Source of the DNA: Candidatus Harrisonbacteria bacterium
GTDB taxonomy: Bacteria; Patescibacteriota; Minisyncoccia; UBA6257; 02-FULL-45-10c
Direction: 5' to 3'
Length of the DNA stretch: 64,000 nucleotides
Assembly: GCA_016192685.1 (NCBI GenBank)
Contig: JACPTS010000003.1
Span: 15,119 to 79,118, forward strand
Shown here: in pieces, positions 1,440 through 39,180 of the stretch
Numbering within the stretch: the stretch's first letter is position 1
Layout: every line of letters starts with the position of its first letter
Notes under the pieces: generated by a model
Databases searched by the model: none
What the model saw: the letters and a program-made list of their open reading frames with translations, nothing else
Told to the model about the DNA's origin: nothing
Made by a program: the position numbers and the translations under genes

Positions 1440-2117
1440 ATGGATTTATACAATCAAAAATGGCAGAAGTTTTTAGGTCGGATTTGGCCGTTTAATTTTA
1501 TTCCGTTTGTAGAGCTTGTGCTGGCTGCCGGGTCGCTGGCGACCGGTAATATGAACGAAAATTCGGATTTTGATGTGATTATCGGGGTCAGGCAAGGAAG
1601 GATTTTTACGGCCAGATTTTTTTGTTGGCTGACTTTTGGAATGTTCGGTTGGCGCGCAAAACATCCAGCCTATAAGTCCAATGAGTCCTATAAGTCCTAT
1701 AGAAATAAAATCTGTTTTAATCATTTCGTAACTCCAAAAGCTTACCGTTTATCGCCGCCGCATAATGAATATTGGAAAAAACTTTATGAATCTTTGATTC
1801 CAGTTTACGGCAGTCCGGAAGCGATTCAAAAATTTTTTGATGCCAATAGCGATTGGATGGGCAGTCAGCGTATTTATCAGGATAATCCACGGCATAAATA
1901 TAAAAAAAGCGGTTGGATTAAGTGTTTTCGGGAATGGCTGCTTGGCGGAAGGTTCGGCGATTGGGCGGAAAGAAAGTTAAAGGCAATTCAAATAAAAAGA
2001 ATAGAGCGTAATCTTAAAACTCAAATCGGCCACAAGCCAAGAATAATTTTTAATGATAATGAACTAGAGTTCCACCCCGATACTAAAAGAATTGAAAATT
2101 TTTTAAAAGAAGAATAA
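1440..2117 (+). CDS. nucleotidyltransferase-domain protein (Pol-beta-like NTase fold)
   Basis: GS-x9-11-[DE]h[DE] motif (GSLATGNMNENSDFDVII). About 225 aa, similar in size to kanamycin/lincosamide nucleotidyltransferase-like or SMODS-like enzymes. Confidence 0.5.
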   Translation: MDLYNQKWQKFLGRIWPFNFIPFVELVLAAGSLATGNMNENSDFDVIIGVRQGRIFTARFFCWLTFGMFGWRAKHPAYKSNESYKSYRNKICFNHFVTPKAYRLSPPHNEYWKKLYESLIPVYGSPEAIQKFFDANSDWMGSQRIYQDNPRHKYKKSGWIKCFREWLLGGRFGDWAERKLKAIQIKRIERNLKTQIGHKPRIIFNDNELEFHPDTKRIENFLKEE

Positions 2118-2147
2118 GATATAAATATAGAACTTTGAAATTAGGAG

Positions 2148-2837
2148 TTGGCTTTGACTGAATGTCCGATTTGTATCCAATATACCGACCGACCAGCTGA
2201 AATTATTGCCCATCAAGTTTTAGCTTGGATTGCGGAGAAAGAAGAATTTTGGCGGCTGGTCCATGTAACACCAAATAGCACCAGAGATACTAAAGGAAAG
2301 GATTTTTTTATTGTTCCAGAAAAGGGAAGTAGGTTTTGTCTTCCTCTCCAAATTAAATCCATCCGTATTCTGGAAAGCAAAAAATTAAAAATTAAGTTGG
2401 AACGAATGCGTAAAGAACCGGATAAAAACAAACCGCAAAGAATAAAAAGAAATTGGGAAGAAAGGTTTAAAAACCCCGCTAAATTGAAAAAATATTTACG
2501 GCAAGTTATCGCGGATTACGCCAAATTAGATTTAATTGTTAATGACCAAGAGATTAAAAAAGGTTTTGAATCAGCGACACGCCGATTGAATTTGGAACAG
2601 ATTTTAAATGAAGAAGCCGGCGGTCAGGAGATTTATCAAGTGTATGGCGAAATTGAATATTTTATAGATGCCTTTGCCAAAGCTATTCGGCACGCTGAAT
2701 TACACCCAAGCGTTAAGGTGCTTCTATTTGTGGATACCAGCGAAGACTCTGATTTAGAAAAACAAATCCCTGGCTTAAAAGAAATTTGGCTACCGCTAAT
2801 TAAAAAGGCGGTAAATTTAGAAAAAGGTCCTAAATAG
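2148..2837 (+). CDS. hypothetical protein (229 aa), Lys-rich middle region
   Basis: Long ORF in the dense + strand context with no recognisable motif. The terminator hairpin overlaps its stop codon. Confidence 0.45.
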   Translation: MALTECPICIQYTDRPAEIIAHQVLAWIAEKEEFWRLVHVTPNSTRDTKGKDFFIVPEKGSRFCLPLQIKSIRILESKKLKIKLERMRKEPDKNKPQRIKRNWEERFKNPAKLKKYLRQVIADYAKLDLIVNDQEIKKGFESATRRLNLEQILNEEAGGQEIYQVYGEIEYFIDAFAKAIRHAELHPSVKVLLFVDTSEDSDLEKQIPGLKEIWLPLIKKAVNLEKGPK

Positions 2838-2846
2838 GACTTTTTT
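2821..2846 (+). terminator. intrinsic terminator hairpin containing a GTCCTA-AA-TAGGAC inverted repeat
   Basis: aaaaaggtccta-aa-taggactttttt is a near-perfect 11-bp stem with a T-run. The stem carries the GTCCTA/TAGGAC motif that recurs elsewhere in the window. Confidence 0.5.
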
Positions 2847-2849
2847 ATT

Positions 2850-2878
2850 TTGACATTTTTTATCCCCCCGACTATATT
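2850..2878 (+). promoter_or_regulatory. sigma70-type promoter (TTGACA, 17-bp spacer, TATATT) for the clan-CD peptidase gene
   Basis: Consensus -35 TTGACA at 2850-2855, exact 17-bp spacer, -10 TATATT at 2873-2878. Confidence 0.55.
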
Positions 2879-2893
2879 TTTAGAAAACGCACT

Positions 2894-3685
2894 TTGACAG
2901 CTAAAAACGTGAAAGCAATAATTCTTGTTTTTGACCAGCCGGAAAGAAAAATAGGTTCTATGTCAGAATTTTGCTATTGCATCAAGAATAGCTCTGTTTC
3001 AAAAGCTGAAAAACTGCTTGGGTATTTAAAAGACGTCCGTTTGCTGCCGGATGATAATGTTTCTCTTTTAAAGAGCTCTTTTTTTGATAATGCCCGCCAG
3101 CTTTTACAGGAATTGCGGATGCTTGTTCAGCGGCGCAAAGATGAAGATTTGCTGTTTTATTATAATGGCCATGGCCAAAGAGGCGGCTGGAATCTCGGAG
3201 AAAATAAATTGGGCTACGGAGATAAAGTAATTCATTATTCGGAATTGGAGGATATTTTCAAGGATTTTAACGAAAAATTGATTTTTTTCAATGAATGCTG
3301 TTACGGGCTTTCTTTGAATCCATATTTGAGCAAGGCGATTTTGGGCAGGTATCTTTTGCTCAGCGGTTCAAGAAATCGCTGCGTCAGTTTTTGTAATCAA
3401 AGCATTTTAGACGTAACTCTTTCATCGTGGGAACATAGAAAGATTGCCAGGCCGAAAGTTTATTTTACAATGATTAACGATAAAAAAGATTCTTTGCTGG
3501 ACAGTGTAACCCCTACCAGAAATCCTTTGGCGGAAAATGTAGTTTTGCGACCTTGCGTAGCGCGATGCGGCACGGGCTGTTTGGCGGAAGGAATAAATTG
3601 GTCGGTTCAGAAAATTTTTTCCAATCCCAGGCCGTCTTTGCGAAGAGGCAGTGATTTAGATTATCTTATGTATCCGCCAATTTAA
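2894..3685 (+). CDS. clan CD (caspase/legumain-like) cysteine peptidase-domain protein, paralog A
   Basis: Putative catalytic dyad: His in YYNGHGQRGGW, Cys in FFNECCYG, 42 residues apart (caspase/legumain-like spacing). Shares these motifs and the C-terminal RRGsDLDYLmYP motif with the ORF at 7121-7702. The start is ambiguous (TTG 2894, GTG 2912 or ATG 2960). Confidence 0.5.
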   Translation: MTAKNVKAIILVFDQPERKIGSMSEFCYCIKNSSVSKAEKLLGYLKDVRLLPDDNVSLLKSSFFDNARQLLQELRMLVQRRKDEDLLFYYNGHGQRGGWNLGENKLGYGDKVIHYSELEDIFKDFNEKLIFFNECCYGLSLNPYLSKAILGRYLLLSGSRNRCVSFCNQSILDVTLSSWEHRKIARPKVYFTMINDKKDSLLDSVTPTRNPLAENVVLRPCVARCGTGCLAEGINWSVQKIFSNPRPSLRRGSDLDYLMYPPI

Positions 3686-27245: not shown

Positions 27246-27263
27246 TAAGCCTTTATTAAAATT

Positions 27264-27423
27264 ATGTTAACTCCTAAAAAAATAAAACATCGCAAGTGGA
27301 CAAAAACTCTCGGAAACCCTCGGTTTTCCGACGTCGCTTCGCTCCTGCCTTCCGATACGGGAAAACCTACGTTTTCCCGCCCCCTTTCCTCCTTTTGCCA
27401 TTTTCAAGGTAAAACACTATAAT
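27264..27423 (+). other. diverged duplicate of the rplP 5' end (52-codon u[15 protein letters not shown]...) fused to GC-rich hairpins
   Basis: Starts 19 bp after the rpsC stop and encodes [12 protein letters not shown], identical to the L16 N-terminus but with different codons. It then diverges and contains a perfect 9-bp-stem hairpin CGGGAAAAC-ctac-GTTTTCCCG. Confidence 0.6.
27395..27423 (+). promoter_or_regulatory. internal promoter directly upstream of rplP (TTGCCA, 17-bp spacer, TATAAT)
   Basis: Near-consensus hexamers with exact spacing inside the ribosomal operon, 8 bp before the rplP ATG. Confidence 0.45.
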
Positions 27424-27431
27424 AAATCACT

Positions 27432-27845
27432 ATGCTTACCCCAAAAAAGATAAAACATAGAAAATGGCAAAAGGGCCGTTCAATAAACCGGAAAATTGAA
27501 ACGCGCGGCGCCACTCTTTCTTACGGCAGTTTTGGATTAAAAGCCCAATCCGGCGCCTGGATTAACAGCCGGCAGATTGAGGCTGCCCGCCGAGCCATCA
27601 GTAATTTTGTTAAAAGAGAAGGAAAGGTGTGGATCCGAATTTTCCCGGATAAGCCGATTACCCAAAAACCGCCGGAGGTTACTATGGGCGGCGGCAAGGG
27701 AGATGTTAAAGAATTTGTTTTTCCGGTCCGGCCGGGGAGGATTCTTTTTGAAATGGACGGCGTTGCTCCGGAGATTGCCAAAGAGGCTCTCCGTTTAGCG
27801 GGATTTAAACTGCCGATTAAAACCAAAATTATCATTAAAGAATAA
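27432..27845 (+). CDS. rplP: 50S ribosomal protein L16
   Basis: 137 aa with the conserved L16 N-terminus and core ([25 protein letters not shown]). Confidence 0.95.
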
Positions 27846-27846
27846 A

Positions 27847-28112
27847 GCGATGTCTAAACTAATATTATCACTAATTAACAAGAGCTATTTTATTTTAAAT
27901 CCAAGGCGCGACAACGAGCTTGTGGTTTTACCACAGCGAGGAGGAGCAACGAAGGAGTTAAATAAAATAGCCTTGCCCTTCGGGAGAATTGATTTTGACC
28001 AATTTCTGCGTTATTTCTCCTCGCAGTATGTTCATACAGCTTCGTCGAAAAGCCTTGAAATTGATACAAAATCAATTCTTTAATTTAGTAAGAATATTAG
28101 TTTAGACATCGC
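27847..28112. mobile_element. R3-family structured palindromic element (about 265 bp, MITE/ERIC-like) between rplP and rpmC
   Basis: 20-bp perfect terminal inverted repeats GCGATGTCTAAACTAATATT at 27847-27866 and 28093-28112. Internal arms are imperfectly complementary (GCGAGGAGGA/TCTCCTCGC, CAAGGCGCGACAACGAGCTTG/CAGCTTCGTCGAAAAGCCTTG). The central motif CCCTTCGGGA at 27976-27985 is shared with the copy at 38862-39128. A third, 16-bp copy of the terminal motif lies at 28299-28314. Confidence 0.65.
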
Positions 28113-28114
28113 AT

Positions 28115-28306
28115 ATGAAGAAAGATCTATTACAAAATTTGCGAGAGAAAAATAAAGATGAACTCTTGAAAGAGCTGCAGTCTTCAAAGGATAATTTGTG
28201 GCAATTACAGAGAGATTTAAAAAGAGGCAAGGTTAAAAATATCAAAGAAGCACGTAATCTGAAAAAGACCATCGCGGTCATTAATACTTTATTAAGTAAT
28301 GTCTAA
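28115..28306 (+). CDS. rpmC: 50S ribosomal protein L29
   Basis: 63 aa, helical, L29-like, in operon order. Confidence 0.85.
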   Translation: MKKDLLQNLREKNKDELLKELQSSKDNLWQLQRDLKRGKVKNIKEARNLKKTIAVINTLLSNV

Positions 28307-28314
28307 ACTAATAT
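28299..28314 (+). repeat. solo copy of the R3 terminal motif ATGTCTAAACTAATAT between rpmC and rpsQ
   Basis: 16/16 identity to the core of the element 1 inverted repeats. It overlaps the rpmC stop codon. Confidence 0.6.
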
Positions 28315-33543: not shown

Positions 33544-33565
33544 CCGCTCAACTATTTTTCCAAAA

Positions 33566-33816
33566 CGGTTCGGTATACTTCTATGAGAACCGCGGTTCTC
33601 GCGCTCCAGCGGCGCGAGCCCGCTACGCCTCGCCGCGATTTTTGTTTTGCTTCGCCAAGTCTGACTTGGCTTCGCAAAACAAACCAAGCAAATCGCGGCT
33701 CCGTAGTTTCTCTACGAAGCATACCGAACCATTTTGTTTTGATAAAAATAGCTTCGCTTGGTTGGGAGAATATTTTAAAATTTGTAGTTACCGCACGACA
33801 AATAGGCATAGCTCAC
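33566..33816. repeat. R1-family GC-rich nested-palindrome element, copy 1 (between secY and adk)
   Basis: Outer inverted repeats GGTTCGGTATaCTTCtaTGAG / CTCtaCGAAGcATACCGAACC, inner pair CTACGCCTCGCCGCGATTT / AAATCGCGGCTCCGTAG, and a central hairpin TTTGTTTTGCTTCGCCAAGTC-tga-CTTGGCTTCGCAAAACAAA. The core and the tail CCGCACGACAAATAGGCATAGCTCAC recur at 35412-35558. Confidence 0.7.
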
Positions 33817-34558: not shown

Positions 34559-34659
34559 TACGAATTTACAAATTTATGCGAATGCTGCGAAAAATACGAA
34601 TTCGTTGTATTTGTAGATTAGCATTTATTCGTAGATTTGTATTATATTAGCGTAAGCGC
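34556..34659. repeat. R2-family about 104-bp palindromic element, copy A (exactly fills the adk stop to map start gap)
   Basis: About 90% identical to 36547-36651. Contains subterminal inverted repeats AATCTACAAAT / ATTTGTAGATT and a central palindrome TACGAATTCGT. It begins at the upstream TAA and ends at the downstream ATG. Confidence 0.75.
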
Positions 34660-36549: not shown

Positions 36550-36651
36550 TACGAATCTACAAATTTATGCGAATGCTACGGAAAATACGAATTCGTTGTA
36601 TTTGTAGATTAGCATTTATTCGTTGATTAGTATTACACCGAGCGTAAGCGT
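36547..36651. repeat. R2-family about 104-bp palindromic element, copy B (fills the GT2 stop to greA start gap)
   Basis: See copy A. Again spans exactly from the TAA to the next ATG. Confidence 0.75.
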
Positions 36652-38548: not shown

Positions 38549-38860
38549 ATGGGAAAGGAAGGGAAGCCTTCGGAAAGGAATCTCCGCCTCAAAATGCTAT
38601 TAGAGATTAAAAGAGACGTAACGCTTTTAATCTTCACTGCCAATTATAACGATGACCCGACAAAGATTAAGCTGAAAAAAGGCACGAAAGTAACTCTTTT
38701 AGACGATAATCCGTCAATTTGCGCCACTACCGAACGGCTGGCAACCGGTCCCAGCGTTAAAATTGAAGAAACAAAAGGCGTTGAAGTAGAAGAAAGATTT
38801 ATCGGAAAAGAAGTTACGGTTCCCGCTCAATGCCTAAGAATTCACCCCCAAGAATTATAG
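38549..38860 (+). CDS. hypothetical protein (103 aa)
   Basis: ORF. An R3 element and then a terminator follow its stop. Confidence 0.4.
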   Translation: MGKEGKPSERNLRLKMLLEIKRDVTLLIFTANYNDDPTKIKLKKGTKVTLLDDNPSICATTERLATGPSVKIEETKGVEVEERFIGKEVTVPAQCLRIHPQEL

Positions 38861-38861
38861 G

Positions 38862-39128
38862 AGCGCGGAATACGAACAGAATCAATTTAGCGGAGCTAAT
38901 TTGAGCCAGATTCAAGGCGCGAGGAGGAAATCGTAGCTTAAGCTACCTTTCCGACGAGCAACGCAGAATATGGACAAAATCGCTCCGCCCTTCGGGAAGC
39001 TCAAAAATGGCTGATTTCTTTGTTGCTCCTCCTCAAGGTATCTAAAGATACACTTTCGTCGTCGCGCCTAGAAATCATCTCATTTTTGAGCTTCTAAATT
39101 CTGATTCATGTTCGTATCCCGCGCTCCT
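38862..39128. mobile_element. R3-family structured palindromic element (about 267 bp), copy 2, in the 3' region of the preceding ORF
   Basis: Terminal inverted repeats GGAGCGCGGAATACGAACAGAATCAATTTAG / CTAAATTCTGATTCATGTTCGTATCCCGCGCTCC. Inner inverted arms GGCGCGAGGAGGAAA / TTTCGTCGTCGCGCC. Central CCCTTCGGGA at 38998-39007. Shares ordered sub-motifs (CAAGGCGCGA, GAGCAACG, CCCTTCGGGA, CTCCTC) with the element at 27847-28112. Confidence 0.65.
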
Positions 39129-39153
39129 AACTCCGGCATTGCCGGAGTTTTTC
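39129..39153 (+). terminator. intrinsic terminator (AACTCCGGC-att-GCCGGAGTT + T3)
   Basis: Perfect 9-bp stem. Confidence 0.55.
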
Positions 39154-39180
39154 TATTGAGCTAATTAAGGTATAATCCTA

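Follow-up and report, generated by a model that had tools for sequence, protein, structure and literature searches.

Downstream of greA and lysS in the metagenome-assembled genome of a Candidatus Harrisonbacteria strain (assembly GCA_016192685.1) lie, in order, a 103 aa open reading frame (ORF), a 268 bp palindromic element, a terminator-like hairpin with a T-run, and serS. These features fall within a 64 kb stretch of contig JACPTS010000003.1 referred to here as the window, which also contains a second copy of the element, in the spacer between rplP and rpmC of the S10 ribosomal protein operon. Both copies appear to belong to a c. 270 bp family of MITEs (miniature transposable elements with inverted repeats), that is, non-autonomous DNA transposons, of the type associated with the IS427 group of the IS5 family of insertion sequences (IS). 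The family is apparently undescribed, and the probability of this classification is put at roughly 0.75.

Insertion at a stop codon and in an operon spacer

Evidence of mobility comes from a sister Candidatus Harrisonbacteria strain, in which both window sites are empty and the flanking genes are 90-91% identical at the DNA level, with RplP 99% identical at the protein level. At the end of the 103 aa ORF, the empty site of the sister strain reads GAATTG-TA-ACTCCGGCATTGCCGGAG, with the terminator following directly after the TAA stop codon, whereas the filled site of the window reads GAATTA-TA-(268 bp)-TA-ACTCCGG. The TA of the stop codon was duplicated when the element inserted into it and, as the element begins with a G, a TAG stop codon was regenerated such that the ORF kept its length. 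A more distant relative also has no element at this site, which is occupied by a 62 bp spacer with a terminator. Conversely, the sister strain harbours another family member 85 bp downstream, between a -10 box and the start of serS, where the window is empty; it is 73.6% identical to the window copy, and at 15 base pairs both partners have been replaced with pairing kept.

An earlier note on this DNA had described an element of about 267 bp at 38862-39128; the element is real, its ends lying slightly differently at 38860-39127. The terminal inverted repeats (TIR) of about 30 bp attributed to it were also recovered, as arms of 31-34 nt forming a near-perfect inverted repeat, the outer 21 nt of which, including the flanking TA, are 95% complementary. 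Its location between the ORF, which stops at 38860, and a terminator was likewise correctly identified. Consensus scanning turned up nothing resembling a terminator from the stop codon to the terminator at 39129-39149, and it is plausible from the sequence that the element is carried in the 3' untranslated region (UTR) of a transcript of greA, lysS and the ORF, ahead of the original terminator. There it may happen to shield or label the 3' end of the message; any effect on mRNA stability would be a by-product. The element has no coding capacity, ORFs across family members being only spurious read-throughs, and its core motifs are 65% GC, compared with 41% in both its remainder and the genome. 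Homologues of the 103 aa ORF are confined to close relatives, a 100% match bearing the name Candidatus Harrisonbacteria, and it matched no Pfam family in a scan covering it and the three genes around it. Short-read contigs of the window strain in Logan (L123 and L124) both stop 82 nt into the element, at the left-arm apical palindrome; an assembly break of this kind would be expected of a palindromic repeat.

The second copy, 266 bp in length, stands in place of a 5 nt coupling spacer of the S10 operon. In the sister strain the sequence is TAAaaaagATG, and in this strain and three further relatives the rplP-rpmC spacer is 4-8 nt long and holds no element. The terminal stem may bring the rplP stop codon and the rpmC start codon back together, a possible reason for the insertion being tolerated. 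Public gene calls place a 77 aa ORF straight through this copy (27850-28083), which is an artefact of the insertion. Further downstream, the last codons and stop codon of rpmC are supplied by a solo copy of the outer part of this element's TIR, at a position where the sister strain has unrelated sequence; the match is an exact 16-mer (5 matches found against 0.96 expected), which becomes 22 of 25 nt when a longer stretch is compared, and may be the footprint or remnant of a third copy.

A dispersed family with a conserved branched fold

The two window copies contain the same series of motifs in the same order and at nearly the same spacing, namely CAAGGCGCGA (38913-38922 and 27902-27911), 31-33 nt, GAGCAACG, 23 nt, GCCCTTCGGGA (38987-38997 and 27975-27985), CTCCTC, TTCGTCG and GCCT(A/T)G. 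The ordered sub-motifs of the earlier note are therefore common to both copies except for the last, which is GCCTAG in the copy beside the 103 aa ORF and GCCTTG in that of the S10 operon. The 10-mer CAAGGCGCGA and the 11-mer GCCCTTCGGGA have exact matches in the window at these two copies alone. Pairwise alignment against shuffled sequences, the comparison on which the note had staked its claim, gave a divided answer: local alignment under harsh scoring reached 30, equal to the shuffle maximum of 30 and so not above chance, whereas global alignment scored 24 against -53 +/- 7.6 (z = 10.2), the best of 1000 dinucleotide shuffles being -29. A hidden Markov model of the family, trained on 39 elements from other organisms and on no window sequence, matched 38860-39127 (E = 7.6e-30) and 27847-28112 (E = 1.9e-15) but no further site in the 64 kb; this profile and the global alignment supersede the local result. 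Both copies share the same architecture and fold far more stably than shuffled sequences, with z = -10.3 and z = -9.8, respectively.

Relatives were sought with an exact pattern scan (AAGGCGCG, gap, AGCAAC, gap, CCCTTCGGG) of one genome per species, and at least 120 of approximately 270 bp were found, often as several copies per genome. The listed matches come from hosts including Gammaproteobacteria (among them Pseudomonas), Betaproteobacteria and Alphaproteobacteria, all Pseudomonadota, as well as Acidobacteriota, Verrucomicrobiota, Gemmatimonadota, Planctomycetota, Omnitrophota, Elusimicrobia, Ignavibacteria and Saccharibacteria, with copy-rich genomes in the Pseudomonas fluorescens group, Ventosimonas and Bowmanella. 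Clear ends and TIR were discernible in 86 elements, which are 240-300 bp long by construction; unfiltered lengths cluster around 269 bp. A stricter scan of metagenomes added 14 more, nine of them closely akin to the window's subfamily and carried by contigs with 35-42% GC, while BLAST of plasmids returned four further MITE copies and no others, and BLAST of Escherichia coli genomes and phages returned no match. The suggestion of a dispersed family is thus supported, by at least 120 loci in many phyla and by two window copies that are independent, strain-specific insertions.

No Rfam family was matched at the gathering threshold in the window or in eight loci of other taxa, nor at E <= 10 on the element itself, and full-text literature searches with the core and TIR sequences, and with IS427 and MITE, retrieved no description of the family. 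Ubiquitous ABC ATPases aside, no protein family recurs beside the family copies. Two structural variants were observed: half-size elements of about 180 bp, with the terminal stem, left arm and central hairpin and no right arm (L006 1190-1369, L009 6312-6489 and L090 7320-7503), and a family copy whose right arm carries an additional insertion (L006 4330-4690).

The element folds into a four-way junction whose branches are the terminal stem P1 (about 30 bp), the long left and right arms P2 and P4 and, between these, the tiny hairpin P3. Both long arms are built from an outer stem, a large internal loop of conserved sequence and a small apical hairpin (Table 1). Purines predominate on both strands of the left-arm loop, where AAGGCGCGA faces GAGCAACG; as the right-arm loops are the reverse complement of the left, the element is approximately dyad-symmetric and is matched by the family profile on both strands. 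The same junction was recovered from an alignment of 41 diverse family members, in which 54 of 61 pairs show compensatory changes, including all 16 of helix 1 (P1) and all 21 of helix 2 in the left arm; helices 6-9 belong to the right arm. Paired cells amount to 86%, a share that shuffling lowers to 57% and sliding of the partners to about 40%, and the covariation score of 0.67, against 0.19, was not reached by any of 500 shuffles.

Pairing of one arm with the other into a single long hairpin was ruled out as the selected fold, the outer stems pairing and covarying within each arm; moreover, the right-arm core of the window's subfamily is altered to TCGTTCCTT with no matching change in the left arm. 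In copies outside the selection imposed by the search pattern, the P3 loop varies (TTCG, GGAG, GCAG, ATTCG, GAAG) and the core is otherwise the same. The canonical open-loop arm lies 5' of CCCTTCGGG in nearly all copies, the reverse polarity being seen in two, both on a viral contig.

Table 1. Features of the two element copies and their surroundings, in window coordinates
Feature	Position	Strand	Remarks
MITE-like element of the c. 270 bp branched-palindrome family	38860-39127 (268 bp)	+	Profile match, fold, absence in sister strain
103 aa ORF, function unassigned	38549-38860	+	Stop codon is the insertion target; no Pfam family
Left copy of duplicated target TA	38858-38859		Forms the TAG stop of the ORF with the element's first G
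P1, 5' strand (left TIR), GGAGCGCGGAATACGAACAGAATCAATTTAG	38860-38890	+	Pairs with 39094-39127
P2, left arm	38891-38987	+	Covarying outer stem, purine-rich internal loop, apical hairpin
Left-arm loop	CAAGGCGCGAG 38913-38923; GAGCAACG 38956-38963		The two strands lie opposite each other
Left-arm apical hairpin, GTAGC-TTAA-GCTAC	38933-38946		
P3, central mini-hairpin, CCC-TTCG-GGG	38988-38996	+	At the junction
P4, right arm	38998-39093	+	Covarying outer stem, pyrimidine-rich loops, apical hairpin
Right-arm loops	GTTGCTCCTCCTC 39022-39034; TTCGTCGTCGCGCCTAG 39055-39071		Reverse complement of left-arm motifs
Right-arm apical hairpin, GTATC-TAAA-GATAC	39038-39051		
P1, 3' strand (right TIR)	39094-39127	+	
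Right copy of duplicated target TA	39128-39129		
Intrinsic-terminator-like hairpin and T-run	39129-39156	+	Adjoined the stop codon before insertion
Second element copy, between rplP and rpmC (S10 operon)	27847-28112 (266 bp)	+	Profile E = 1.9e-15; fold z = -9.8
Isolated 16 nt match to the outer end of the second copy's TIR, ATGTCTAAACTAATAT	28299-28314	+	3' end of rpmC

Mobilisation and competing explanations

A symmetric TA..TA flanks 42 of 84 family members. In these 42 clean copies, the preceding base is a pyrimidine (Y) in 93% and the following base a purine (R) in 88%, and the element ends are G...C in 37. Where the 3' end of a gene faces an element, the stop codon is within 6 nt of the boundary in 29 of 79 cases, a siting consistent with a TA(G/A) target in genomes that have few TA dinucleotides other than in stop codons. 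The tips of the TIR have a loose consensus, GGGnCTGTT. In a gammaproteobacterial subfamily, the TIR TAGGGTCTGTTGACGTTTGG agrees at 20 of 21 aligned bases (95%) with that of an annotated IS5-family element on a Paracoccus plasmid, an 830 bp IS with two frameshifted ORFs and TA on both sides. IS1301, a member of the IS427 group in ISfinder, offers a further comparison. Its target is AYTAG, of which TA is duplicated (PMC2193550), and IS427-group elements in general are about 830-865 bp long, with two frameshifted ORFs and 2 bp duplications (PMC3281130).

The best-supported mechanism on these grounds would be that an IS427-group DDE transposase moves the element in trans. Members of the family occupy Y-TA-R targets, very often right at a stop codon, which in the copy beside the 103 aa ORF was restored as TAG by the first G of the element. 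The interior, three local palindromes which together with the terminal stem would make up the four-way junction around its invariant, GC-rich core, may be retained since copies need it for mobilisation, such that selection would act on the DNA at the level of the element and not on an RNA function of the host.

Several observations weigh against an IS427-type MITE. The match between TIR and IS is seen in the gammaproteobacterial subfamily alone, the TIR of the window copies bearing a loose resemblance to those of the IS, and the family profile has no significant match to the IS left end beyond the TIR. No transposase was detected by Pfam in 20 of the window's 49 ORFs of at least 170 aa, and tblastn searches of the window and of about 160 loci (around 1 Mb), for which seven IS427-type transposases served as queries, also gave none. 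A clean TA duplication is missing at the rplP-rpmC copy, as it is in several AT-rich relatives. Classical MITEs conserve their ends while the interior decays; here core and geometry are constant across phyla and the terminal stems vary yet always pair. Even among close relatives in the Candidate Phyla Radiation (CPR), the tips differ (GGGGTCAGGG, GGGTTCAGGA, GAGTCGTGGAA and others) and the junction and core are fixed. The termini of the two window copies are unlike (GGAGCGCGGAATAC... and GCGATGTCTAAAC...), both having been inserted after the split from the sister strain, and are not easily reconciled with a single transposase specific for the sequence of the tips.

Apparent autonomous 'long' elements of 2.2-2.6 kb are chance TIR matches, as judged from the one locus examined (L066), and the family loci contain no extra TIR copies flanking ORFs. 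The Paracoccus IS has CAAGGTCGC...GAGAGCAAC before its start codon, from which an origin of the core in the 5' UTR of an IS might be imagined; the profile has no match to IS left ends and the motif is missing from other IS427-group ends, leaving this as a weak lead only.

Constancy of core and geometry from CPR bacteria to Pseudomonas, alongside TIR that vary freely and always pair, could instead indicate a mobile element defined by its structure. Its enzyme would recognise the four-way-junction core in folded single-stranded or cruciform DNA and not the terminal sequence, the base of the terminal stem setting the ends, and might be another structure-specific enzyme, perhaps encoded by the host, instead of one of IS427 type. 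Such an enzyme would accommodate the unlike termini of two copies both recent in one lineage, and the hypothesis also draws on lengths being tight around 269 bp, on stems that are Watson-Crick only, with equal G·U and A·C, and on the 15 fully compensated pair changes relative to the sister-strain copy, accumulated at 9% flank divergence. The lack of a transposase near any copy examined also favours it, although MITEs are usually far from their transposase, so this says little. By contrast, the Y-TA-R target with a 2 bp duplication is exactly that of IS5/IS427-type DDE transposases, one subfamily has a TIR nearly identical to that of a real IS, and the tips do have the loose GGGnCTGTT consensus between G...C ends. 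Recognition of structure in place of terminal sequence is judged unlikely, and is the leading rival to the IS427-type MITE.

A functional cis-acting structured RNA, such as a 3' UTR stabiliser, a processing site or a device for translational coupling of rplP and rpmC through the joining of stop and start codons at the stem base, for which mobility would be secondary, is very unlikely. The fold is very stable (z of about -10), the element lies inside transcription units, with the rplP-rpmC copy tolerated in a 5 nt spacer, and in all three Harrisonbacteria copies the strand with UUCG is the mRNA sense; cUUCGg is a classic stable RNA tetraloop. Structured RNA would be expected to tolerate G·U pairs and to show a preferred orientation. 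Isolated mismatches in Watson-Crick-only folds are, however, G·U in 101 and A·C in 100 cases on the reference strand and, when the transcribed strand is considered in 42 co-directional gene contexts, 46 and 47. Relative to co-directional genes, 21 elements are in the same and 21 in the opposite orientation, and a further 16 contexts are convergent and 16 divergent. This equality of G·U and A·C and the absence of orientation bias count against a function of the sense-strand RNA, as do the presence/absence polymorphism of sites between close strains, the unfixed central loop and the lack of an Rfam match. The mismatch pattern argues that the stems act like DNA complementarity, with the constraint probably falling on DNA (as hairpin, cruciform or protein binding site) or equally on both transcripts. 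A chance palindrome or local duplication without a family, for which only the result of harsh local alignment speaks, is refuted by the global z of 10.2, profile E values of 1e-15 to 1e-30, at least 120 homologues and covariation far above controls. Our verdict is that the element is a mobile transposon-like repeat and not a dedicated RNA gene.

For annotation, this means that the 268 bp blocks, and the 77 aa ORF called through the other copy, should be treated as mobile repeats and not as genes or regulatory RNAs. Two Harrisonbacteria strains of approximately 91% identity are set apart by two insertions, one of them inside the tightly packed S10 operon, and one relocated copy, such that even very small genomes still host active non-autonomous transposons. 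Insertion at the TA of a stop codon, with the stop regenerated, represents a low-harm habit. If conservation of the core does reflect a requirement of transposition, the family would offer a naturally occurring system in which to examine how IS5-type transposases recognise their substrates through structure.

The window contains further unusual sequences. Between rpsC and rplP is a block of about 190-220 bp (27246-27467) not present in the sister strain, in which the rpsC stop codon abuts the ATG of rplP. The original rplP start and first 12 codons (27265-27300) now head a 52 aa pseudo-ORF, and a synonymously different copy of these 12 codons at the end of the block (27432-27467), preceded by a TATAAT-like box, now heads rplP; the block looks like an insertion carrying a replacement 5' end for its target gene. 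A 176 bp nested palindrome at 33561-33736, with outer arms of 29 nt that are 83% complementary and inner arms of 21 nt around a 1 nt centre, has no match to the family profile and hence probably represents a different repeat family. Two different genes are each followed by a copy of one motif of about 28 nt that includes a palindrome, GAAAA(A)TACGAATTCGTTGTATTTGTAG (34585-34616 and 36576-36607), and three consecutive ORFs of 225, 229 and 263 aa (1440-3685), which belong to no Pfam family, adjoin an RmuC-family gene.

Comparison with known repeat families

REP sequences and the REPINs they form are shorter than the family described here, do not duplicate TA and depend on RAYT (HUH) enzymes for their movement. 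Together with ERIC and the R0, R2, R200 and R26 repeats of P. fluorescens (PMC2718517), they are, like the present family, multicopy intergenic palindromic stem-loop repeats. Identity with REP or REPIN is ruled out by the TA duplication, the differing architecture and the lack of a recurrent neighbouring gene. The 320 bp R200 or 352 bp R26 of P. fluorescens may be the same family, a comparison made by description only, as these repeats are listed without sequence (PMC2718517).

The Tourist, or PIF/Harbinger, MITEs of plants resemble the family in their TIR consensus, GGGCCTGTT..., and in having a target that contains TA. The PIF/Harbinger transposase superfamily is related to that of IS5. These elements differ in being eukaryotic, in generating a 3 bp TAA/TTA duplication and in having no conserved branched core.

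Correia elements (CREE or NEMIS) of Neisseria are likewise small transposon-like repeats with TIR. They duplicate TA and are co-transcribed with neighbouring genes as long hairpins, and no transposase is known for them. Unlike the family, they are 105-157 bp long, form one hairpin and not four arms, are restricted to Neisseria and have fixed 26 bp TIR, for which 26-28 nt variants have been described (PMC5039591). Copies in Neisseria gonorrhoeae (L167 2622-2728, 18240-18394 and 20001-20157) contain the family strings CAAGGCG..ACGA..AGC..CGCAGA, AAGGCGAGGCAACGCCG and GGCTTCGTCGCCTTG. The statistical case for homology is marginal in both directions, with E = 0.015 for the family profile against CREE and a best E of 0.055 for CREE against the family using nhmmer, in which short CREE gave 13 weak matches and a reversed control none. 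The element was rejected as a Correia member, since it is without the 26 bp Correia TIR (TATAGTGGATTAA...) and its size is outside 100-160 bp. A Correia element looks instead, by its sequence, like one condensed arm of the family, which is a lead and not a case for membership. An ancient pan-bacterial element defined by its folded DNA junction, recognised by structure and with freely drifting termini, of which Correia elements would be a reduced single-arm offshoot, can be entertained only tentatively and is doubtful; if the core is conserved because transposition needs it, the family could also point to where Correia elements came from. Two 2.17 Mb N. gonorrhoeae records labelled as plasmids, NZ_CP119140.1 and NZ_CP119142.1, are evidently whole chromosomes.

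Along with the Correia elements, the closest likeness in behaviour is to MITEs derived from the IS427 group (IS427, IS1248, IS1301, IS869 and relatives), which have the same 2 bp TA duplication and YTAG/YTAR target (PMC3281130, PMC2193550) and TIR of the GGGnCTGTT type, the likeness of the TIR being loose in the window copies, and which are also multicopy, intergenic and non-coding. The left ends of IS427-group elements include an AT-rich site for integration host factor (PMC3281130), and the family's TIR has a stretch that reads like such a site. Differences are that the 64 kb window and about 1 Mb of loci yielded no IS cognate to the window copies, and that the interior is a covarying four-way junction conserved across phyla and not the remnant of a deleted IS. 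The family would be a new one of a known kind, a bacterial MITE, its unusual feature being a structured core conserved across phyla.

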